A stretch of DNA of 11,799 nt, from the NCBI GenBank assembly GCA_038217285.1, contig JBBQPO010000196.1:1-11799 (forward strand), given 5' to 3'. This document shows, piece after piece, positions 1,057 to 11,799 of this stretch. How positions within the stretch are numbered: position 1 is the stretch's first letter; each line of letters opens with the position of its first letter. Origin of the DNA: Chthonomonadales bacterium. GTDB lineage: Bacteria; Armatimonadota; Chthonomonadetes; Chthonomonadales; Chthonomonadaceae. The notes beneath the pieces are model-generated. The model was not told the DNA's origin and did no database searches. It saw nothing but the letters and a program-made list of their open reading frames with translations. The position numbers and the translations under genes were made by a program.

Positions 1057-1725
1057 ATGTCTGACACTCATTCCGCCTGGGGATACCCGATTGTCCTGAT
1101 TCAGTGGGGGGATCCACGCAAGGAGTTTCCTGATATCGAGGAAATCAGCGCTTTGATAGAGCATGATGTTGCTGATGTGTTCCGCAACGCAGGCATCACG
1201 GAATTGCCGGAGATGGTCAAACTTGACGTCGCGAATGACAATCCTCAGTTGTTCAGAGAAGAAATCGTGCAATGCCTTCAGCGCAACCGGGAAAACGTTC
1301 AGATAGTCTACATCGGCGCGCACGGCAATCAACGTGGCATTTGCTTCGACAATACTGGGGCAGCTGTGTTGACCTACGAGGAAATTGCAGGCATCGTTCA
1401 GGAAGTATTTTTTGATGATAATTGCCTGAAAGTTGTTTTCGGAGTCTGTACGGTGATGTCTGACGAGGTTGCTGTCGAAAGTAAGTTTCCGTCATCTGTA
1501 TCGCGTATTATTGGCTTTGCGGACAAGCCAGCGGGGCAAGACGTCGCCGCGCTGGTAGCAGGCGAAATAAAAAATATGATGCAACTGTATGTAGATCTCC
1601 ATAAGCAGTCGGTGGTTGCCATAGGTGAATCTACCACACCCGATAGAAGCGCTGCGTTTCAGGCGGAACTTGTCAATCGAAATGATCAAATCGTTTTGGA
1701 CACACACCGTAGAAGAACATGTTGA
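1057..1725 (+). CDS. Caspase/CHAT-like (clan CD) cysteine-peptidase-fold protein, probably frameshifted near the C-terminus
   Basis: IVYIGAHG (His89, 1321-1323) and VVFGVC (Cys131, 1447-1449), followed by IIGF, match the HG...C dyad and strand order of CHAT/caspase-like domains. AAGGA upstream at 1043-1047. Confidence 0.65.
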   Translation: MSDTHSAWGYPIVLIQWGDPRKEFPDIEEISALIEHDVADVFRNAGITELPEMVKLDVANDNPQLFREEIVQCLQRNRENVQIVYIGAHGNQRGICFDNTGAAVLTYEEIAGIVQEVFFDDNCLKVVFGVCTVMSDEVAVESKFPSSVSRIIGFADKPAGQDVAALVAGEIKNMMQLYVDLHKQSVVAIGESTTPDRSAAFQAELVNRNDQIVLDTHRRRTC

Positions 1726-1935: not shown

Positions 1936-2560
1936 TCTGGTATCTCTGAGGCCCTGACCTCTCTCGCGACCGCTGTTGCGTAACCCGATTGGGGTCTCAT
2001 ACGAAGAGATGGGTAAGGCCACGCTTCGTCATACCCGTCCCAAAGCCCTCACATCGTTACACTACGGTAGACCAGGCAACGAGTGGTCCTCACCCTTTTT
2101 CCCTGTACGGCCTCCTCCGTTCGCTGAACCCTTCTCGACAATGTGCAGTGAGGGCGGCGACTTGCTCTTGCGGTGCCTAAACCGGTGCGCTGGATGCAAA
2201 CCCTTAACTCACGCTCTATGAGTTCGACGACGGGCACGTATACGGGAGGCGTTAGTTCGGCGGAAGCCCATGGTATTGACGGTACCTCGGACCTATTGAC
2301 ACTTAATACCGAACGATGTGAACCATACTGGATACAAGATGAACACAACAGCCGTTCTTCCTAACCCTACTCAGGTCGATGGCTAGATCTTACATGCAGA
2401 ATAAGCAGGGGAACGAAGGGTTAACGATGAATATAGGCCATTAAGAGTTGTGTTCGGTAGAACTCTCTTGCCTGGTGGCGCATAATACTAGGAACTCGTC
2501 TCGTTTACTCCCGCGCAGCGCCTTCACCTGCATCCCCCTTTGTTTGATGGAAGCTTACAG

Positions 2561-4804
2561 ATGCGAAACTTGAACGTAAAAATCCAGCGAATGACGATTG
2601 TGATACCGATGGCGCTGCTCGTTTGCCTTTCGGGCTGTAGCTCACTCTTTGGACCACCCTCGGGGTCGAGCCGCCCCGCTGGAGGTATCGAGCAGGCCAA
2701 AGGCGCGGAGCCGCCAGAGATAGATCTGGTCTTTGTGGTAGACCAGTCGGAAAGCATGGGAGGCAGCCCTCACGAACGCGGTACTGACCCGACAGGGTTG
2801 CGTTTCCGGGCGCTCCGCTATGCGATCGACAGCCTCCGGATGAAGGCCACGGCGAGTCGCCCACACCGAATGGGCCTGGTGCAGTTCGGCACGGACGCAC
2901 CCGCAGAACTGTCTAGCAGCCTGATAGCAACGACCGATTCAACAGGCATTGCGCACCTCCAGGCGAAGTTGCAACCCCGCAACCTGGTATGGACTAATTT
3001 TGGGTCAGCGATGAAGCGCGCGGCTGGCATTCTTCGCACAGGCGGTGCGTTTGCACCGAATCATCGACCGGCCATTGTCGTATTTACCGACGGCACGCCC
3101 GAAGATACGCGTCACTTACCGCGGTCGGCTTACTTTCAGGAGATCGAGCGCCTGGTCGACGCCGAGTTGGGGCAAACGGGGTGCCTGGTGTATCTTGTCG
3201 CCGTAGACGCGTCAGGCCGCTTCTGGGGACAGGACAGTGCCGAGTGGAACCGGATTACCGGCGGGCGGGCGAGATCGATTGCAAGTGTGGAGGAATTAAA
3301 GCCGCAATTCAATGAGATCCTGCTGGACCTGCTTCAGCTTCCGAAGATGGCGAAGGATGAAGTGCATCCCGGAATGACAGCGTTTACTGTTGGGCCTTAC
3401 CTGGAACAACTCGAATGCCATGTTCTCGGCCAACCGCTACAGGGACTGGAACTGGTAGCCCCAAACGGTCACGCGGTACAGCCGGTTCGCTGGACCAGTC
3501 AAGATTACACGATCCTCACCGTTAAACGGCCTCAGGCTGGCGCATGGTCCTACCGTCTGCCCAGCAAAGCAACGACACTCACGATCTACCGTAATGAAAC
3601 GCCGGTCCGCCCCCGTCTGGTTTCCCCGCTGCCGATCCACCCTGCCGGAAAGGCGATGCGCGTAATCGCGGAGGTGCGGTATGTGAATGGCGATGCGCTC
3701 ACCGAACTGCCCGCCTATCCTCTCAGAATTACTACCCGGGTCACTCCTGGCGGGAAGCAAGCAAGCAACTACACGATGCGTCCGAGAGGCTCCGGGCTCT
3801 TCGATACGGACGGCGACACACCGATCCCTCCCCAATCGCGTGAAGTTCAGGTCGAGACGGTCTTACATGCCGGGACGAGCCGCGAGTACACGACATCTTC
3901 CAGGATTGACATTACACGCACACCCTATTTTGACGTCTCGCTGCAGACAGGGGGGTGGCTGCGCCATTACGGCGACCAGATCGTGGTGACCGCTCAGTTA
4001 CGCGAGGCAGGCGCGCCGGTGGCTCCCGAGCAAGTATTTCAAAGTCCCACGGCAGTGATCCGCGCCGAACTGGTCGGTTCCCCGGAAAATCAGCGCTCGA
4101 CTTCCATGTGGCTGGATGAGCGGCGCGAACAGCCCGGCACCTACGTTGCTTATCTTCCTGCCGCCGTCCGCGCGCCGGGGCGCTACGAGGTGACTTACGC
4201 CCTGGGCGCTACCGACGTACGCTCCGGCAAGCGCGTTGAGGGGACCGAGACGATCTCCGTTATGGTCCGCCCCACCTGGCTGGACTGGTTGGTTGTCGGA
4301 GGGACGTTGGCGGCCCGATTAGCGGCGATCGGCCTGACGGTTCTGATCATCACGCTCTTGTGGGCGTTTCTCTGGGCACTGCGACTGCCCCGTATGCGTG
4401 GGGGAAAGGTACAGATCCTGGCTCCGGAAAGACCGCAAAATCCCGCTCGGACGCCAGCCAACGCGAACCGTCCGAAAACCCAGCCCTCTGGCGGTGGGCT
4501 TGCCGGACTCATGCAGACTGCTGCCGCGGCGACTCCTGCACAGGCGTCCGAGGGACCGTCGCCTGCTCCGTCTCGCGACCACAGCTATCCCCTGCGGGGC
4601 AAGTTTTTACTCTGCCGCTATGGACGCCTGTTCTTTATTCATGAAGTCCGGGCCCGTCGTGGCTCTCAGGGGCCGCTTGGCGGCGGAGCCCGCATGGATG
4701 TCCGTCAATATGCCGTTCGCTTCTTTGTATATGGCGTCCCAGGCATTGTCCGGTGCGAGTCGGGTAAGGACGTCATGGTTGGCAGGTACAGGGTGAAATT
4801 TTAA
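2561..4804 (+). CDS. vWA-domain lipoprotein with beta-rich middle region, C-terminal TM helix and cytoplasmic tail (747 aa from ATG 2561)
   Basis: Basic n-region, hydrophobic h-region and lipobox LSGC (Cys at 2636-2638). Complete MIDAS: VFVVDQSES (Asp at 2741), WTNF, VVFTDG. Beta-strand/Pro-rich middle region, hydrophobic segment WLDWLVV...LLWAFLWAL (about 4277-4383), then a P/A/Q-rich linker. ATG 2561 preferred over TTG 2540. Confidence 0.88.
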   Translation: MRNLNVKIQRMTIVIPMALLVCLSGCSSLFGPPSGSSRPAGGIEQAKGAEPPEIDLVFVVDQSESMGGSPHERGTDPTGLRFRALRYAIDSLRMKATASRPHRMGLVQFGTDAPAELSSSLIATTDSTGIAHLQAKLQPRNLVWTNFGSAMKRAAGILRTGGAFAPNHRPAIVVFTDGTPEDTRHLPRSAYFQEIERLVDAELGQTGCLVYLVAVDASGRFWGQDSAEWNRITGGRARSIASVEELKPQFNEILLDLLQLPKMAKDEVHPGMTAFTVGPYLEQLECHVLGQPLQGLELVAPNGHAVQPVRWTSQDYTILTVKRPQAGAWSYRLPSKATTLTIYRNETPVRPRLVSPLPIHPAGKAMRVIAEVRYVNGDALTELPAYPLRITTRVTPGGKQASNYTMRPRGSGLFDTDGDTPIPPQSREVQVETVLHAGTSREYTTSSRIDITRTPYFDVSLQTGGWLRHYGDQIVVTAQLREAGAPVAPEQVFQSPTAVIRAELVGSPENQRSTSMWLDERREQPGTYVAYLPAAVRAPGRYEVTYALGATDVRSGKRVEGTETISVMVRPTWLDWLVVGGTLAARLAAIGLTVLIITLLWAFLWALRLPRMRGGKVQILAPERPQNPARTPANANRPKTQPSGGGLAGLMQTAAAATPAQASEGPSPAPSRDHSYPLRGKFLLCRYGRLFFIHEVRARRGSQGPLGGGARMDVRQYAVRFFVYGVPGIVRCESGKDVMVGRYRVKF

Positions 4805-4809
4805 GGTTG

Positions 4810-4825
4810 GCGCCCATGCGCCCAT
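4810..4825 (+). repeat. Perfect 8-bp tandem duplication GCGCCCAT x2
   Basis: Directly visible at 4810-4817 and 4818-4825, between the vWA stop codon and the tubulin RBS. Confidence 0.8.
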
Positions 4826-4837
4826 TAGGAGACATGT

Positions 4838-7800
4838 ATGGCTCGAGGGAATCTCATTATAAGCGTTGGCGGAGCTGGCAAGGGTGTCCTTAACTACATC
4901 AAACAGACCCTGGTCGATCGTCATGGTTCTGTGCAGGCCAGCGGCACTGTGTTGCTGTCCATTGATGGTCCGCCGCCGGAAAGCGACGGAGACTACCTGG
5001 CGACTGGAGGCTTCTCCCTCAGTTCCAGGCAAGCCGACCAGGAATTTTATGGGCTGAAGGCCGACCCGAAGCCGGAGTTCGAAGCGCTGGCTGCCGGCAA
5101 TCCTGCCGGGTGCCACTCCCCCTATCTGGTACGCACCGTAACGCGGTACGAGGCCCAGAAGCTCACACGCCTGGTACAGAATATGTCGCCCAAAGCGGGG
5201 TGCGGCGGTTGCCGGCCCGCTGCCTTCGGCAGCTTCTGCCTGGAAACTACCTCGCTAAAAACGGAGATTTCGCGGGCGATCGAAACAGCGCGTCACCTCG
5301 CGCCGTGGGGCGACGTTGAGGGCCGGCGTATCCAACTCTTCAATGTCATTCTCGTGGGATGCCAGTTCGGTGGCACAGGATCCGGACAACTGACTAGCAC
5401 CGCCCAGTTGCTGAGGTCGCTTATGCGGGCGGAAGATCGCCTCATTCTGGCGCTCTTTCTTCCAGATGCCTTTGAATATGTACTGCGCAAGGACACCGAC
5501 TCGCGCGACTACGCCGACGCCAAGGGATGGTGCGGGCTTGCCGAGTTGGCACGGTTAAGGAAGTCGCTTGGGATTCAGGACAGCATCGAGTATACCAGCC
5601 AGACATCGGCGAGCTACGGACAGCTCTTTGATGTCTGCTTCCTACTCGACGGCCGCGGTACGAACGTGAACCAGACGCAGAGCGTGCCTCGTAACAGCAT
5701 CGTTCCGGCTGCGGCAGACGCGCTTACCAGTCTGATCCTGGACGACCTGCACTCGGTCACGAAGTATATTGACTGGGCCAACCGGTCGCTCGTCAATAAG
5801 CACTACAGTGCTCTCGGCTCCCACACCTGGGTGTTTCCGGCGAAGCGGCTTGTGGCCGAGTATGCGTTGCGTTTTACCGCGTCTCTGTACCAGAAGATGT
5901 TGGATGCGGCGAATGTGGAAGAGGAGGCTCGCCAGCGGGCGCGAGTTCTGCTCAATAAGACCCTGATTACGCAGATGGCGATTGATGCCAGCCAGAACAA
6001 GGGCCTGCCGACCCATCCGACGGAATGGCGCGCTCTGCGCCCGCGTATGACCGTAACCGTGAACCCGCCGCAATGGCCGCAAAGCGATAGTTTCGATATC
6101 TGCCGTCTGGAGAAGGAAGTGCGCCACTGCCGTCATATATTCGGAGGACCCAACAATTCCGAGGTCAAGCAGGATACGGACCAGACGGTAGAAGCGTATC
6201 TGGGCAAACCGGACGACCAGCGAGAGCTTACCGTGCATGGCTGGTTGAACGTCAACGCAAGTGTGGTCAGGACCGTCCTGGTAGACAACCTCTTACTACA
6301 ATTCAAAGACCTCTTTTACCGTCGTGACAACACGGGGGTGTACCAGGTGCGTCCCCTGTCCGAGCAGGCCAACACGATTACGGAGGCCCGCCTGTTCCTG
6401 GCGGAGACGATGCGTACGCTTGGGATGCTTCGCGATCAGTTCAAGACCGATCAGGAGAAAGGCTATATAGCCGACCCGGACGTGCCAGGCCAGCGGGTGC
6501 TTATCACCACGTTCGCACGCCGGGCTGTGGATGCCCTGAGCCCCCAGATGGGCGCTGGACGCGACCGCGGCCTACAGGAACAGTATATTGCTGCAAGCCA
6601 GGTCTATCTCGAAGCGCGGGTGTGGGAGGAGTTGATGACAGCAGGGCATCGGCTGGCCGAAGACTTGCTTAACCTCCTAGAAGTGAGCTGGGGATGGGTG
6701 GGAGACGCCGCCTCCGGTTGGGAGGCCTTCTTGCGCGATGTCTGCCTCAAGACCGTGGAAGGGGAAAGGACGCGCCTGCGGACCGTGGCGCAGGAGGAAG
6801 ACGATATCGCCTGCCGGACCAACTTCCCTTCCGCCGGGGGAGCGGCGGAACGCGCGCTCTACGAACAGACCACCGGCGACATGGACCTCATTGACGCTGC
6901 GCTCAGCCGGATGAGTTGGGAATTGACTGAGATCGCTCCGACGGGCGACCCGCGGAAGGATCTGGAGGGCAGGCAACTCCTCCTGAGAACCGGCATGGAG
7001 GTTCCACCCAACACCGCCACCCAACTGGTCGTTGGGCGGGATCTGCTCACGAACGAGAAGCGAGAACTCCAGGTATCGCAGCACTCTCCAGAGCAGTTGC
7101 GATCCTTTGCGGAGGCGCACGTACGCCCGCGAATAGACGAGCTCTCACTTTGGGACGCCCTCTATGCGGTCTTCCGCTACGAGGCGCTCCCCGCCGGCGC
7201 GACGCCGACGGACGCCGCGATGCAGAGCTTCGTCAGCGCAAAAGTCCAGGACCTGCATATGAAATCGGAAGTCCTCTTCCGCAACGCCGGGCGCGCCGGC
7301 GATGCTGTCACCTACTGCTTCTCCCGGTTTGTGGTCGAGGAAACGCCGAGCGGCCAACTCAGCACTGCATTCCAGAGGGAACTCGAGCAGACTTTCGGCG
7401 CAACCCACGGCTTAGACCAACTCCGGCAGGAGCTACGTGTCGCCTCCTTCGCTCATGGTCTGGACCACGCCGACTGGAGCTATTTTGACGAGGCGTACAG
7501 GAAGTACGGTGACCATGAGGATGCGAGCCGTCTTCCAACCTCGCAGATATACGCCAACGAGAAATATGCGTTCGAGCTGGAGACCATCATCGGCCAGCGG
7601 ATCCGCCGTGCCGTAAGGCGGCCTCTGCCTCCGGAGATTTCTTGCTTGATGAACTACCCGGAAGATCTGGAAACGTTCGTGATGGCCTGGCTGGCCCGCT
7701 TGTTCGATAGAATTGACGATCCGAAGCTGCCCAATTCCTTCCCGTTTGTTGGGATTACCAGTCCCCGTCAGGTGGATCTAGGGCGCCCTGAACACTTCGA

Positions 7801-8086
7801 CATGGTACTCAGAGAGTACCTGGCTCGGGGCGCTGGCCGGATCGGCGCTCAGGAGGTGCGCGATGAGATTTCCAGGCGGCTCACCGCTAAAATGCTGGAC
7901 CTTAAGGACCAGCCCACGCAGGAGCTCTTCTACCGTGGACTTATCCAGGAGGCCCAGGGGAATGACCCATTCTGGCTTAAGGGAGCGACGATGGACGCGG
8001 GGGTCCCGAAAGATATCTGGATCGAGGTATTCCTCGCGATTGTCTTACGGCGTGCCGATCGCTACCGCATCGCCCTAACTATCTAG
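4838..8086 (+). CDS. Tubulin/FtsZ-like GTPase (FtsZl1 / Tubulin_2-type) with long C-terminal extension, 1082 aa
   Basis: N-terminal LIISVGGAG, GCGGCR at the position of GAGxxR, tubulin signature FGGTGSG (GGTGSG at 5369-5386), LFLPDAF, FDVCFLLD and YSALG, all typical of Tubulin_2-type proteins. RBS AGGAG at 4827-4831. Adjacent to a vWA gene, as is known for this family. Confidence 0.9.
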   Translation: MARGNLIISVGGAGKGVLNYIKQTLVDRHGSVQASGTVLLSIDGPPPESDGDYLATGGFSLSSRQADQEFYGLKADPKPEFEALAAGNPAGCHSPYLVRTVTRYEAQKLTRLVQNMSPKAGCGGCRPAAFGSFCLETTSLKTEISRAIETARHLAPWGDVEGRRIQLFNVILVGCQFGGTGSGQLTSTAQLLRSLMRAEDRLILALFLPDAFEYVLRKDTDSRDYADAKGWCGLAELARLRKSLGIQDSIEYTSQTSASYGQLFDVCFLLDGRGTNVNQTQSVPRNSIVPAAADALTSLILDDLHSVTKYIDWANRSLVNKHYSALGSHTWVFPAKRLVAEYALRFTASLYQKMLDAANVEEEARQRARVLLNKTLITQMAIDASQNKGLPTHPTEWRALRPRMTVTVNPPQWPQSDSFDICRLEKEVRHCRHIFGGPNNSEVKQDTDQTVEAYLGKPDDQRELTVHGWLNVNASVVRTVLVDNLLLQFKDLFYRRDNTGVYQVRPLSEQANTITEARLFLAETMRTLGMLRDQFKTDQEKGYIADPDVPGQRVLITTFARRAVDALSPQMGAGRDRGLQEQYIAASQVYLEARVWEELMTAGHRLAEDLLNLLEVSWGWVGDAASGWEAFLRDVCLKTVEGERTRLRTVAQEEDDIACRTNFPSAGGAAERALYEQTTGDMDLIDAALSRMSWELTEIAPTGDPRKDLEGRQLLLRTGMEVPPNTATQLVVGRDLLTNEKRELQVSQHSPEQLRSFAEAHVRPRIDELSLWDALYAVFRYEALPAGATPTDAAMQSFVSAKVQDLHMKSEVLFRNAGRAGDAVTYCFSRFVVEETPSGQLSTAFQRELEQTFGATHGLDQLRQELRVASFAHGLDHADWSYFDEAYRKYGDHEDASRLPTSQIYANEKYAFELETIIGQRIRRAVRRPLPPEISCLMNYPEDLETFVMAWLARLFDRIDDPKLPNSFPFVGITSPRQVDLGRPEHFDMVLREYLARGAGRIGAQEVRDEISRRLTAKMLDLKDQPTQELFYRGLIQEAQGNDPFWLKGATMDAGVPKDIWIEVFLAIVLRRADRYRIALTI

Positions 8087-8117
8087 CAGGTGGTACGGAG
8101 AAAGGACGGGAGCTTTG

Positions 8118-8777
8118 GTGCAGGGAGAACTACTGCTCATTGGAGACTACGACTCTCGTACTGCAGAAGCGTTATCGGAATGGCTGCGAAGAGTCGGGAT
8201 TCAGAAGACGCGGTTCGTGCCGCTCCCGCAAGGAGACATCGCAGCCTTGCTCCCAGAACTATATCGCGCTCGCGGACTAGTGATTTTCGCGGAGGCTCGC
8301 GCTACGCCGCTTACATTGCGTAGCGCACTGAACGGCGTGGAACTGCTTACGTGGGTTCTTGGGCATGAAGCGCTGCAGGTCTGTCTCTTGCCAGCCGTCC
8401 TGTTGACGTTTCTGGATACAACTCAATTGCCTGACTACTGCCCGCCACGCCTGGTTCAGCGTTTGCCGTGCCAGGCGGACGCGCTGGCGGGTCGCTTCGC
8501 AGAACTTGCAGATGAAAGATTGGTTCGGGAGGCGATCAACTATTTCCGCAGCCGGCATATCGAAGCATTGCGTAGGGTGCTTGTCGATCGGCTCGATCAT
8601 GCAATTGGGAAACTTGTGCCGCCACAGGTGAGGCATGGCGATCTCATGGAGAGGTCGCGGCTGCTGCGCTTATCGCTTGTCGGGGCCAATTCCATTTTAG
8701 AGCTTGAGGCTCTCCGTAACCACGTGGTCCAGTTCTCCAACGCGGTTCAGGAAGCCTGGTATATGCTCTTACGTTAG
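8118..8777 (+). CDS. Degenerate (pseudo-)receiver domain followed by a His-containing helical region
   Basis: Receiver-like order ELLLIGD / LVIFAE / NGVELL / LPAVLLTF / RLP, lacking the canonical phosphoacceptor Asp and Lys. C-terminal helices contain LDHAIGKLVP. Start is GTG 8118 or TTG 8115, with GGGAG and AAGGA upstream. Confidence 0.6.
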   Translation: MQGELLLIGDYDSRTAEALSEWLRRVGIQKTRFVPLPQGDIAALLPELYRARGLVIFAEARATPLTLRSALNGVELLTWVLGHEALQVCLLPAVLLTFLDTTQLPDYCPPRLVQRLPCQADALAGRFAELADERLVREAINYFRSRHIEALRRVLVDRLDHAIGKLVPPQVRHGDLMERSRLLRLSLVGANSILELEALRNHVVQFSNAVQEAWYMLLR

Positions 8778-8793
8778 AAGAAAGAGGAGACCC

Positions 8794-10665
8794 ATGGGTG
8801 ACCTGCCCTTAGTTTTGAAGGCAGTGGCGGATAGCGTAAGCGAGCAACTTCGAAGACGGGACCGTACTAAGCCATTCATATTGGTCTGTGATGATAGCCC
8901 GGCGGAAGGCGCGATGCTTATGGCCTGCTTGCCTTCGTCATACGGTTCTCTGTACGTTCAGCATCCCCGTGTCTTACTGGAAGCACTCACGCAGGCACTG
9001 CGGTGGGACGCACTACGTGGAGTGGTGATCGTGTTGGACAACATCTTTGAGTACGACGGCGCTATTGAGGAAGGCTGGATTATCGGCCCTCCGGAAGACT
9101 TTGAAATAAACCACCAGGGGGAACTGGTGCATGCGGAACTTAAACGCAGCGTCCCGAAGGTACCGGTGATCCTTCTTACCCGGCAGGATCCACAGAACCT
9201 GTTATTCATCGAAAAGGTGACCTTTCTGCGAGAAGCGGAGGCACGCATCGTTGAAGCAGCCATGCAGGCGGGCTGGTACGATCTCATTGATGCCCGCTTG
9301 GTGCTTAATATGTGCCTTCGCCGACATGGTCGCACAAGCGACGAACTATTCGACGGATTCGCCGTAAACCACGCGCTTACCCAGCTTGTGCCCCTACGGA
9401 ATCGAGAAGACTTTCTGGCCATTGTAGAGGGCTTCGTTGCCCGCGCTACGCGTGACCGGAGCCACCAACCCATGGTGATCTCCGCTCGCCAGGCAATGAC
9501 GCAAGTAGCAGACGCTGTCGAAGCCACGATCAAGGCGAACGAGCTATCCGACCCTTTCTCGCCGCTCTTCCCAGGGGGGCAATGGGAATGGCTGTATCAG
9601 GATCTCGTAGACAGTCGGACGGAGTGGCAACTTTACGTGAATGCGATGTGGGACTTCTCCAAAATTAACCGAATGGCGTTGCATGACTGGCAACACGTGG
9701 AGCATGTCTACCGCATTGTCGCCCACCTTGTCGGGCTCCTGCAACAAGCCCAGCTTCTGGATCCGCCTTTGACGGCGCCAGAACTCTACGCGCTTGCCGG
9801 GGCGGCTATTCTGCACGATTCCGGCAATAGTGGCGGGCGCGCGCGAACAAGCGATGACCGGGTCGTGACGCTAACGGACAAACACGATGTACGCAAGATG
9901 CACAGCCTCATCATAGAGTACGAATTGAAGCAAGAAAGCGGAGAACTCATCGGACTTGATCGCTGGGCGCAAGAAGCCATCGGTTACCTGTCGCTTTACC
10001 ACCCCAGTAAGCCACCGCTCACCGGCAGTACTCCAGTCCAAATGGACACGAGCCGCTACCAGTTCGAGGTGCGTCCGTGCGCGCCGGAGAAACAGTACTA
10101 TATGCTGAGCCGAAAGCACCGGTACGAGGGACGCAACTGCATCTTGCGGACCCAGTTGCTTGCTGGGATTCTCAGGCTGGCCGATGCCCTGGACGTCGAT
10201 TATATGCGTGCGGGGGTCGGCCTCCAGCATACAGTCATTCGCCGCCAGAGCCAGCACGAGATTGAGGCGCTGTTGCAGGAACTCACGGTCAAACTCGAGT
10301 CCGATCTGGTGACGGATGTCCGGGACGTCTGGGACGACATGAATCCACAGTCCATCGTAGAACGGCTTCGTATTCATGAAGAGCAGGTGGTAGATCCGAA
10401 CGATCAGATGCGATTGAAGGAACTCGAGTACCTGTGTTTCCAGGTGCAGCACTTCCGAAAGCACTTATCGCTTGGCGAGGTTCAACTCTCGCTGGAATAT
10501 CAAGATGGCCGTCCGTTGCTTGTGGCAACCTACCCTGTCAGGGACCCGGACCAGAAGTGGGTTTTGAGCGTGGTCGAGGACGATCTCAAGAAGGAATTTG
10601 CCTCCGTACAGAGCATCGGGGTCTTCGAAAAATTAGGCCCTATCGTTGTTCGAGCCAGTCATTAG
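8794..10665 (+). CDS. Receiver domain + helical linker + HD-superfamily phosphohydrolase (HD-CE-like), 623 aa
   Basis: RBS GAGGAG (8784-8789) supports ATG 8794 over TTG 8704. Receiver motifs: ILVCDD, IVLDNIF (Asp at 9037), VPVILLT, IEK. HD motifs: LHDWQH, AAILHDSG (9814-9819), VRKMH, LYH, LAGILRLADALD, and C-terminal HFRKH. Confidence 0.85.
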   Translation: MGDLPLVLKAVADSVSEQLRRRDRTKPFILVCDDSPAEGAMLMACLPSSYGSLYVQHPRVLLEALTQALRWDALRGVVIVLDNIFEYDGAIEEGWIIGPPEDFEINHQGELVHAELKRSVPKVPVILLTRQDPQNLLFIEKVTFLREAEARIVEAAMQAGWYDLIDARLVLNMCLRRHGRTSDELFDGFAVNHALTQLVPLRNREDFLAIVEGFVARATRDRSHQPMVISARQAMTQVADAVEATIKANELSDPFSPLFPGGQWEWLYQDLVDSRTEWQLYVNAMWDFSKINRMALHDWQHVEHVYRIVAHLVGLLQQAQLLDPPLTAPELYALAGAAILHDSGNSGGRARTSDDRVVTLTDKHDVRKMHSLIIEYELKQESGELIGLDRWAQEAIGYLSLYHPSKPPLTGSTPVQMDTSRYQFEVRPCAPEKQYYMLSRKHRYEGRNCILRTQLLAGILRLADALDVDYMRAGVGLQHTVIRRQSQHEIEALLQELTVKLESDLVTDVRDVWDDMNPQSIVERLRIHEEQVVDPNDQMRLKELEYLCFQVQHFRKHLSLGEVQLSLEYQDGRPLLVATYPVRDPDQKWVLSVVEDDLKKEFASVQSIGVFEKLGPIVVRASH

Positions 10666-10736
10666 TCAGTAACCGGGTGCCGTGTCTTAACAATAGAGAC
10701 ACCACTTCAACGGAAGTCTAACTTAAGGGAAACAAG

Positions 10737-11381
10737 ATGTCTGAACCAATCTATCCGCGTTTGGTGGCCTATCTGGATAGTCTCGTGCCTCCGCGAGATC
10801 CCATTCTGGAAGAAATGGAAGCGTATGCAAAGGAAATCGGATTTTTCATAATCGGAGCGGCGGCAGGCTATCATAACTATCTGATCGCCCGAATGATGGG
10901 GGCGCGGCATATCTTCGAATTGGGATCTGGTTTCGGGTATTCGACGGCCTGGTTCGCACGTGCGGTGAAAGAGAACGGCGGCGGCATTGTGCACCATGTC
11001 GTCTGGGAGGAAGACATGTCCCAACTGGCCCGCAGCTATCTAAGCCGAATGGGCTACGCCGATACCGTGCAATTTCATGTCAGCGAAGCCGTTGAAACCC
11101 TCAGAAATACGGAGGGCCCCTTTGATCTCATCTTTAACGATATAGATAAGGACGGCTATCCGGCTTCGATCCCGGTTATCAAGGAAAAGCTGAGGCCGGG
11201 CGGCGCTCTGATCATTGACAATATGCTTTGGGAGGGGGCGATCTTCGACGATACGGATCAGTCTCCAGACATCGTTGGGATTCGCGAAGTCACCCGTCTC
11301 CTTACACAGGATCCGGAGTTTATCAGCAGTCTGGTTCCGATTCGCGATGGCATGATGCTGGCTTACTATCAACCCAAATAG
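10737..11381 (+). CDS. Class I SAM-dependent O-methyltransferase (Methyltransf_3 / caffeoyl-CoA-OMT / YrrM-like)
   Basis: FELGSGFGYS SAM-binding motif, GPFDLIFNDIDK, LRPGGALIIDNMLW, and C-terminal VPIRDG. AAGGGA RBS upstream. Confidence 0.93.
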   Translation: MSEPIYPRLVAYLDSLVPPRDPILEEMEAYAKEIGFFIIGAAAGYHNYLIARMMGARHIFELGSGFGYSTAWFARAVKENGGGIVHHVVWEEDMSQLARSYLSRMGYADTVQFHVSEAVETLRNTEGPFDLIFNDIDKDGYPASIPVIKEKLRPGGALIIDNMLWEGAIFDDTDQSPDIVGIREVTRLLTQDPEFISSLVPIRDGMMLAYYQPK

Positions 11382-11406
11382 ATCCCATCCGGTAGAAGTC
11401 AGGCGA

Positions 11407-11799
11407 TCAGTCGTCGATCACGATGCGCGCATTCAAAATCCACCCTGCTTTGGCATCGTTGGCGAGGACAGCTTCGGCAATTTTTTTGGTTTGGCCTGGA
11501 TCGGTGATCCCAAACCAAGGTTCGCAAGCCTTACCAATACGCATGCGGAAGTTCTTCACCAATTGTTTGAGCGCCTCCTGTGCATCGAGGCTGTCATAAA
11601 CCTCTTCCAGCACGACAGCAGTGGGCACAGGGCGGTTCTTGCGTTCTGCGAGCAGCCACAGCATTTTGTACTGGTTTGGAGTCAGTTTCCATGGCTCATC
11701 GAATACCTCAACATACATCTCCTCCTTCTTGTTTCGCCATAGATGAATATAGGGAAGTTCATTAAGGTCGGGGAGGGGAAGCAAGGCCTGACGGGCTGC
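11407..11799 (-). CDS. C-terminal part of a protein with an OmpR/PhoB-type winged-helix DNA-binding domain
   Basis: KLTPNQYKMLWLLAE...VLEEVY...LKQLVKNFRMRI...AGWIL matches the Trans_reg_C pattern. The frame stays open to the window edge (AARQA precedes TTG 11784), so the real start is probably outside. Confidence 0.75.
   Translation of the reverse strand, partial: AARQALLPLPDLNELPYIHLWRNKKEEMYVEVFDEPWKLTPNQYKMLWLLAERKNRPVPTAVVLEEVYDSLDAQEALKQLVKNFRMRIGKACEPWFGITDPGQTKKIAEAVLANDAKAGWILNARIVIDD

Follow-up and report, generated by a model that had tools for sequence, protein, structure and literature searches.

Operons in which a divergent tubulin-like GTPase, FtsZl1 (Pfam family Tubulin_2), is encoded together with a vWA protein are a known class (Makarova and Koonin, 2010; PMC2875224), for which the main text of that article proposes membrane remodeling and not conflict, and a reviewer's comment in it places a cyclic di-GMP (c-di-GMP) phosphodiesterase next to one FtsZl1 gene. 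Tubulin and vWA proteins also figure in the conflict systems centered on GAP1-N2 GTPases that were predicted by Kaur, Burroughs, Iyer and Aravind (2020; PMC7159879). Here we analyze a stretch of 11,799 nt from a Chthonomonadales bacterium (the window, which is the whole of contig JBBQPO010000196.1; genes past either end are outside view), in which four genes, termed g1 to g4, encode a surface vWA protein, a Tubulin_2 GTPase, an orphan protein and a protein with an HD-CE domain. Judged by domains and gene order, g1-g2 belongs to the class of FtsZl1/vWA operons, and what an earlier note on this DNA had said of that class, namely that FtsZl1/Tubulin_2 GTPases are encoded with vWA proteins and have been proposed to remodel membranes, matches the main text of Makarova and Koonin. 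What comparative genomics presents as new is the attachment of an HD-CE protein and an orphan protein to this known pair. We favor the reading, at a probability of roughly 45%, that the vWA and tubulin proteins would form a sensing or thresholding core joined to a swappable effector cassette, here g3 and the HD-CE hydrolase, with the coupling read from gene order.

The conserved unit is g1-g2 and nothing larger. At all loci with upstream DNA (11/11), the open reading frame (ORF) immediately before the g2-like one resembles g1 and shares its full-length architecture, and the same adjacency is found at L041, L043 and L044. The two proteins diverge in parallel, being 48% (g1, full length, to L004:7692-9983) and 49% (g2) identical to their L004 counterparts, and the tree of the tubulin proteins resolves four well-supported clades. 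The earlier note had presented all four genes as one operon and one system; the g1-g2 part of this stands as a conserved pair, but g3 and g4 have no detectable orthologs at other pairs or elsewhere, and the four-gene set is therefore seen once, unique to this contig.

The genes that stand beside related pairs are of different kinds. Once duplicates were removed (L005 = L003, L040 = L004, L042 = L007, L009 = L010), 14 pair loci were left; L009 and L010 had been considered as independent loci and were rejected as such, being identical over 1935 + 285 nt. Conflict-type neighbors occur at five of the 14. The window has g3 and g4 (HD-CE) downstream of the pair. L004/G060 has, upstream, an unassigned 384-aa protein and a 1233-aa protein whose gene ends 178 nt from the vWA gene; the latter matches HD-CE (4e-13) and TCAD9 (5.9e-14) and, in a targeted test, a receiver domain (18.3 bits, ~1e-6) with the Asp, Thr and Lys positions present. 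At L041/G052, an 896-aa HD-CE protein (2.1e-11) is encoded 189 nt downstream of the tubulin gene and is followed by a UvrD/GajB-like helicase; the genes upstream of the pair encode a ClpB-like double AAA+ protein and a nucleoside hydrolase, and farther out there are CARF and RAMP genes. At L009/L010, a 591-aa protein with TIR_2 (5.6e-18) as its last domain is encoded 465 nt upstream, and a second tubulin paralog lies downstream. Finally, L003/G030 has Cas6 upstream and an 8-repeat CRISPR array that starts ~700 nt downstream (Cas6 and array at L003:457-1269 and 7943-8499, on G030:C78; repeat ~37 nt, spaced 73-75 nt). Flanks could not be judged at L015, L016 and L044 (3/14), which are too short. 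Within the window's own tubulin clade, an effector-type neighbor is present in all 3 lineages with known flanks (a fourth, P0006, a 43%-identical relative of g2, was left out). Immune-type genes beside related pairs are recurrent, not universal. As different effector-type genes flank related cores, the effector would be the exchangeable part, and the arrangement suggests a defense module with swappable effectors. The earlier note's expectation that HD and receiver homologs accompany tubulin-vWA pairs in other genomes is borne out by the HD-CE proteins of L004/G060 and L041/G052, and by a real receiver at L004.

We also considered how often HD-CE and Tubulin_2 lie together across 401 sampled genomes of the phylum. 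Tubulin_2 is found in 148 of these, the g1 profile matches in 14 at E<=1e-10, and HD-CE matches are present in 112, of which 70 exceed the cut-off. By hand tally, 39 genomes hold both HD-CE and Tubulin_2. The two lie within ~5 kb on one strand in three of them (G000, which is the genome of the window, G052 and G060), each from another family, and on different contigs in 35 (G116 was left unassigned). Random placement would yield ~0.1 such co-locations, against the 3 observed, by rough arithmetic and no formal test that assumes one or two copies of each gene and genomes of ~5 Mb, and the clustering of defense genes in islands inflates such counts. The other surroundings of HD-CE (13 loci, L027-L039) are varied but of immune type: the domain is fused to CARF (Cas_APE2256) beside RAMP genes, fused to TIR plus IF-2B or to HATPase_c, or located beside C5 DNA methylases. 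Judged by these contexts, HD-CE in the phylum has the character of an immune-type domain. The earlier note had called HD-CE hydrolases described conflict effectors; our survey agrees as to the immune-type contexts, but no description of these families turned up in literature searches on HD-CE, PF24391 and TCAD9.

Within the window, the four plus-strand ORFs are co-oriented and together span 8.1 kb (Table 1). The spacings given earlier, 33 nt between g1 and g2, 31 nt between g2 and g3 and 16 nt between g3 and g4, proved exact on re-measurement, as did the outer boundaries (2561-10665). The clear ribosome-binding sites reported for the last three genes are likewise present, as GGAG-type sites ahead of g2, g3 and g4; g1 has a weak one. 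A scan of the three gaps (4805-4837, 8087-8117 and 8778-8793) found no terminator-like or promoter-like site.

Table 1. Features of the 11,799-nt window (positions in nt; aa, amino acids).
Feature	Position	Strand	Description
g1	2561(ATG)-4804	+	747-aa lipoprotein-type surface protein with vWA
g1 vWA (MIDAS) domain	2723..3256	+	aa 55-232 counted from ATG 2561; predicted extracytoplasmic
g1 predicted membrane helix	4286..4396	+	aa 576-612; Kyte-Doolittle peak 2.37 (19-residue window)
g1 cytoplasmic tail (predicted)	4397-4801	+	~135 aa, after the membrane helix
g2	4838-8086	+	1082-aa Tubulin_2 / FtsZl1-type GTPase
g3	8118(GTG)-8777	+	219-aa orphan; proposed role adaptor or regulator
g4	8794-10665	+	623-aa HD-CE protein; proposed role effector
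g4 receiver-like region, weak	8869..9228	+	~aa 26-145
g4 HD-CE domain	9673..10263	+	Pfam, aa 294-490; same range from genome search
IS4-type transposase fragment	1-858	minus	DDE_Tnp_1 (Pfam)
222-aa ORF	1057-1725		48.7% GC (genome 60.4%)
O-methyltransferase	10737-11381		Pfam
OmpR-type regulator, DNA-binding end (Trans_reg_C)	11407-11799	minus	Runs off the contig

The vWA call for g1 holds: the protein matches Pfam VWA_2 (2.9e-9, 37.9 bits, cut-off 27) and VWA (1.8e-8, 35.2 bits, cut-off 23.8). The Pfam range of aa 62-239 belongs to a 754-aa reading of the gene and corresponds to aa 55-232 of the reading from ATG 2561 used here. The metal ion-dependent adhesion site (MIDAS) is intact (D61-x-S63-x-S65, T145 and D177), and all five residues are invariant in 10/10 family members, as is C26 of the lipobox L23-S-G-C26. 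Among sequences in the Protein Data Bank (PDB), the g1 family profile picks out vWA domains from adhesins of the pilus tip (SpaC, 2e-7). There are two hydrophobic segments (aa 6-32 and 576-612), the second of which is followed by a basic stretch, RLPRMRGGK; W605, L609 and R611 are nearly invariant in the family alignment, and the C-terminal block of the tail is conserved as well (F692, R720, G735). Because of the lipobox, the two hydrophobic segments, and the basic start and conserved end of the tail, g1 is most likely a lipid-anchored protein whose vWA and beta-rich domains face outward and which has a single membrane helix and a tail in the cytoplasm, in line with the surface topology proposed earlier. 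Two vWA proteins resembling g1 are encoded amid metabolic genes in genomes with no Tubulin_2 match, at L046:3759-5999 (G233:C12) and L047:5729-8506 (G106:C25).

The assignment of g2 to the tubulin-like GTPases also holds, as it matches Tubulin_2 (PF13809) at 2.2e-19 (70.4 bits, cut-off 27) over aa 6-351, covering positions 1-355 of the 356-position profile, and carries a C-terminal extension of ~730 aa. Both GTP-binding loops are intact, with GGAGKG at 11-16 and GGTGSG at 178-183, and G11, G12, G14, G16, G174, G178, G179, G181 and G183 are invariant in 13/13 aligned rows. We take GGAGKG to be loop T1 of tubulin/FtsZ (GGxGxG) and GGTGSG to be the T4 signature. A hydropathy scan found no hydrophobic segment, and g2 is probably a cytoplasmic tubulin-superfamily GTPase that would assemble in a GTP-dependent manner. 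For the Tubulin_2/FtsZl1 family, the T6-H7 elements are not identifiable according to the main text of Makarova and Koonin (2010; PMC2875224). No solved-structure relative in the PDB is detectable by sequence with the g2 family profile; the sole PDB match, a histidine-phosphotransfer protein (E 0.087), was dismissed, as its His stretch faces a variable segment of the profile. The closer relatives of g2 (43-52% identity) come from one Armatimonadota genome and from metagenomes. The g2 query finds matches in only two of 41 close relatives, namely in the window and in G030, no relatives of the family are present among viral contigs, and a tblastn search of plasmids found no match for g2 or g4. 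The genome of the window holds a second Tubulin_2 gene outside it (C34:27003-28019, in an ORF of 1093 aa, 1.2e-36), which is very different from g2, giving no match to it at 1e-5, and is shared with G001 and G003, two genomes of the same genus; no g1-like gene is found elsewhere in that genome, and the copy in the window is the sporadic one.

As for g4, the HD call made earlier is supported by a match to Pfam HD-CE (PF24391) at 2e-14 (54.4 bits, cut-off 27) that covers profile positions 4-211 of 263, leaving the last fifth of the profile unmatched. When g4 is aligned with 14 further HD-CE domains, H301, H341-D342, H403 and D464 fall in columns that are conserved. As the metal-binding residues are kept, g4 is predicted to be a catalytically competent, metal-dependent phosphohydrolase. 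Its layout comprises a weak receiver-like N-terminus, a helical linker, the HD-CE domain and a C-terminal region of ~130 aa. A word-based search of 5.8e9 proteins returns only g4 itself, and PDB sequence searches with g3 and g4 gave no match.

The receiver assigned to g4 by the earlier note fared less well. We built a receiver hidden Markov model (HMM) from 53 receiver domains of the window's genome, and it gives the g4 N-terminus a weak score (8.6 bits, E 6.4e-4 for a 6-sequence set), but aa 1-303 have no match to Pfam Response_reg (PF00072) even at E<=10. The HMM match falls into two collinear pieces, a beta1 strand with an acidic pair (ILVCDDSPA at 29-37) and an alpha4-beta4 stretch, ELKRSVPKVPVILLTRQD at 115-134, also given as ELKRSVPKVPVILLT. 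The candidate receiver residues D33, D34, D82, T129 and K141 are placed by spacing only. A single-sequence AlphaFold2 (AF2) model of aa 1-290 is unusable (predicted local distance difference test score, pLDDT, 39.5), and as a lead only, a protein atlas places g4 near a cluster in which 100% of members have HD-CE and 38% have Response_reg (0.91). The N-terminus of g4 is thus weakly receiver-like.

For g3, the pseudo-receiver proposed earlier was not confirmed. The gene is an uninterrupted frame of 219 codons that fills the space between g2 and g4, and its GC content by codon position (GC1/2/3 0.69/0.41/0.60) has a coding-like pattern, similar to the one in g4. Searches of Pfam, NCBIfam, PADLOC and PDB sequences gave no match, HMMER run in full against 1.84 billion representative proteins recovers only g3, and neither g3 nor g4 has a paralog in its own genome at E<=10. 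Against our receiver HMM, g3 scores E 0.7, and Pfam Response_reg gives no match even at E<=10. A single-sequence AF2 model is poor (pLDDT 56.5); it shows strand-helix alternation at aa 5-80, as in an N-terminal alpha/beta domain, and long helices at 133-218, as in a C-terminal bundle. The fold matches of the N-terminal part, to the BaeR receiver (Z 7.4, root-mean-square deviation 3.7, 92 aligned) and TadZ (Z 7.0), are inside the noise range, and Foldseek returns nothing for the model at E<=1e-3 (CikA pseudo-receiver, E 0.3). The protein atlas, again as a lead only, places g3 near the receiver-like N-domain of Orn/Lys/Arg decarboxylases (0.89). Overall, g3 and g4 appear to be a lineage-specific cassette appended to the core, consisting of an orphan alpha/beta-plus-helical protein and an HD-CE phosphohydrolase.

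Base composition is uneven along the window. Against a genome GC of 60.4%, g1 and g2 have 60.9% and 60.1%, g3 and g4 have 57.0% and 56.1%, and the flanks have 49-54%, with sharp steps that set 1-2500 and 10700-11799 apart from 2500-8100. This suggests that the contig is a mosaic of pieces acquired separately. The lower GC of g3-g4 relative to g1-g2 is as expected for a separately acquired cassette, and the figures fit a g1-g2 core at host composition, a g3-g4 cassette that was acquired separately and flanks that were acquired recently. The neighboring insertion sequence (IS) in the earlier note is indeed present, as the transposase fragment at the left end of the window, and transposases flank both the window and L004. 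The caspase-like identity given to the ORF at 1057-1725 was not supported, since searches of Pfam, NCBIfam, PADLOC and PDB sequences gave nothing significant for this ORF (best PDB E 0.23); it also lacks a paralog in its own genome at E<=10. At the right end, the receiver of the OmpR-type regulator, if any, would fall beyond the end of the contig.

Several further genes were seen near related pairs. Upstream of the pair there is a gene for an inosine-uridine nucleoside hydrolase (IU_nuc_hydro, E 5e-85 to 8e-77) at L004:1124-2194, L015:351-1388 and L041:14264-15424; these are three loci from three tubulin clades, and the gene could be synteny or a further component. ClpB-like double AAA+ proteins with a weak YbjN-like N-terminus are encoded directly before the vWA gene at L041:11855-14107 and L044:2-1835 and are 64-83% mutually identical, the L044 frame being split in two. 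The second Tubulin_2 paralog of L010 (3976-6021) stands in tandem and is 51% identical to g2. At one distant pair, a 511-aa protein encoded downstream (L014:15665-17200) has a weak match, below threshold, to CATRA-N (E 6.8e-4, 20 bits, cut-off 27), an N-terminal domain associated with caspases and TPR proteins.

If the core and cassette do work together, as the earlier note had supposed, we infer that g1 would sense outside the cell, its tail would talk to g2, g2 would assemble, and g2 would in turn control g3 and g4. The MIDAS site of g1 might respond to ligand binding or to envelope disturbance, which would be relayed across the membrane to g2, and GTP-dependent assembly of g2 could serve as a threshold or a scaffold. 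Such a scaffold may recruit or release the HD-CE enzyme via g3 and the receiver-like N-terminus of g4, and the substrate that the enzyme then degrades could be nucleic acid, nucleotides or a nucleotide signal, in the manner of abortive infection or dormancy. A bolder form of this idea, which we regard as speculative and rather improbable, makes the tubulin GTPase the assembly platform of a transmembrane immunity: the outward-facing, adhesin-type vWA lipoprotein would detect a phage or foreign cell at the surface, its tail would trigger GTP-dependent assembly of g2, and the polymer would activate whichever effector cassette is attached. The cassette would here be the receiver-gated HD-CE protein with its orphan adaptor, and elsewhere TIR or receiver-HD-CE-kinase-like proteins. 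If true, this would be a surface-sensing defense that acts before DNA entry and is built on a cytoskeletal protein.

Several observations weigh against joining core and cassette in this way, and some of them point to a different account, in which two unrelated units simply adjoin. The pair would then be self-contained, and g3-g4 would be an independent regulator and HD hydrolase, for defense or signaling, that landed in a variable, IS-rich region, with co-orientation and short gaps arising from insertion and read-through, not from shared function. We consider this doubtful, if far from negligible. In its favor, a BLAST comparison with the fetched pair loci gives no match to g3 or g4 at E<=0.01, their GC is unlike that of g1-g2, and transposases flank the window and L004. 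Moreover, the HD-CE domain is found in 112/401 genomes, in many tubulin-free architectures, and is co-located with tubulin in only 3. The effector genes at L004, L041 and L009 are 178, 189 and 465 nt from the pair, against 16-31 nt in the window, and could be separate units in defense islands, which cluster unrelated systems. Other observations tell against a coupled defense module in general. Six of the 14 loci have no conflict-type neighbor (L007, L011-L014 and L043): L007 and L011-L014 form one close clade in which HEAT-repeat and Liv-type transporter genes follow the pair, and at L043 the surrounding genes are priA, def, fmt and a TPR gene. The g1-like genes of G233 and G106 have no tubulin gene adjacent or in the genome. 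The flanks of the window hold no defense gene recognized by Pfam or PADLOC, the IS fragment aside, and PADLOC-DB 2.0.0 has no family (0) that matches g1, g2, g3 or g4 at E<=0.01, nor any for the L004 pair or for the HD-CE proteins of L004 and L041. Finally, the receiver reading is weak for g4, and the fold matches of g3 do not rise above noise. Against mere adjoining stand the 31- and 16-nt gaps, which hold ribosome-binding sites and no terminator-like site, the HD-CE genes directly beside the pair in three families where chance would give ~0.1 co-locations, and the effector-type gene by the pair in every lineage of the window's tubulin clade with known flanks.

Two further accounts fit less well. 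The pair could be a membrane-remodeling or envelope-sensing machine and g4 a receiver-HD-GYP-like second-messenger phosphodiesterase that tunes it, a role in envelope biology that we hold to be distinctly unlikely. It would accord with the remodeling role and the reviewer's c-di-GMP phosphodiesterase neighbor in the main text of PMC2875224, with the housekeeping or transporter genes that surround some pairs, with the receiver-like N-terminus of g4, and with atlas neighbors of g4 that include receiver-plus-HD_5 clusters at a low score (0.79). However, g4 matches HD-CE and not HD_5 or HD-GYP, the partners of HD-CE in the phylum are CARF, TIR, HATPase_c and DNA methylases, the pair is sporadic (2/41 relatives with the g2 query; 14/401 genomes with the g1 profile), and TIR and CRISPR-Cas neighbors are unexpected for a housekeeping role. 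The other account, that g3 is not a real gene or that the cassette is a decaying remnant, with meaning left only in the annotated domains, is very improbable in our view. It could draw on the missing homologs and low-confidence model of g3, and on a contig that is short, IS-flanked and compositionally mixed, but the 219 codons of g3 are uninterrupted and exactly fill the space between its neighbors, a ribosome-binding site and coding-type GC1/2/3 like that of g4 are present, and the catalytic and binding motifs of g1, g2 and g4 are all intact.

The reading of the pair as a core with an attached effector cassette matters because FtsZl1/Tubulin_2 proteins are widespread, and our literature search found no experimentally known function for them, nor is there a sequence-detectable solved relative. 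It offers a testable hypothesis, that in one clade of vWA/tubulin pairs the two proteins do the sensing and thresholding while the immune effectors attached to them (HD-CE, TIR) are exchanged, with one version of the pair placed within a CRISPR-Cas locus. Should this hold, a cytoskeletal GTPase would join the known NTPase scaffolds of prokaryotic immunity, and the system would be a rare case of sensing at the cell exterior. The four-gene cassette is compact (8.1 kb), and hence suits expression tests.

Compared with described systems, the architecture does not appear to be a named one already, which agrees with the earlier note: it has no PADLOC model, and literature searches of main texts found neither a vWA/tubulin-like pair joined to HD-CE or TIR nor a tubulin-like/vWA anti-phage system. 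The supplementary tables of PMC2875224 and PMC7159879 fell outside these searches, and Additional files 5 and 6 of the former might list HD neighbors. Among related designs, the CARF-HD-CE proteins encoded beside type III CRISPR genes (L036, L037) resemble g4 in having an N-terminal regulatory domain (putative in g4) before HD-CE and conserved HD-CE catalytic residues, but the N-terminus of g4 is weakly receiver-like and not CARF, and the window has no cyclic-oligonucleotide synthase or CRISPR gene. The MoxR-vWA ternary systems likewise combine a vWA partner, an NTPase and hypervariable effectors, as described in the main text of PMC7159879, and TCAD9, a domain named after them, is present in the HD-CE protein of L004. 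In the window, by contrast, a tubulin-like GTPase takes the part of the NTPase and the predicted location of the vWA is extracellular; Pfam finds no AAA+ or MoxR match there, and a ClpB-like double AAA+ protein stands ahead of the pair only at L041 and L044. Also related are the GAP1-N2 systems, for which the main text of the same article describes tubulin-family proteins with membrane-bound, outward-facing vWA, proposes NTP-dependent assembly as a threshold and lists variable effectors. They differ in being built on GAP1-N2 TRAFAC GTPases together with proteins of FNIII repeats, and they are reported from Firmicutes and Actinobacteria, whereas the relatives found here are from Armatimonadota and the 8 ORFs scanned in the 11.8-kb contig have no P-loop GTPase or FNIII family in Pfam. 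The FtsZl1/vWA operons (Makarova and Koonin, 2010; PMC2875224) resemble the window in pairing a vWA gene with one for a divergent tubulin GTPase that has a long C-terminal extension, in a vWA protein that keeps its MIDAS and has both a signal peptide and a membrane segment, and in a patchy distribution with additional lineage-specific neighbors. In place of the frequent partners named in the main text of that article (protein kinases, a diverged P-loop GTPase and OmpA-like proteins), which are absent from the window, this locus attaches an HD-CE hydrolase and an orphan protein to the pair.

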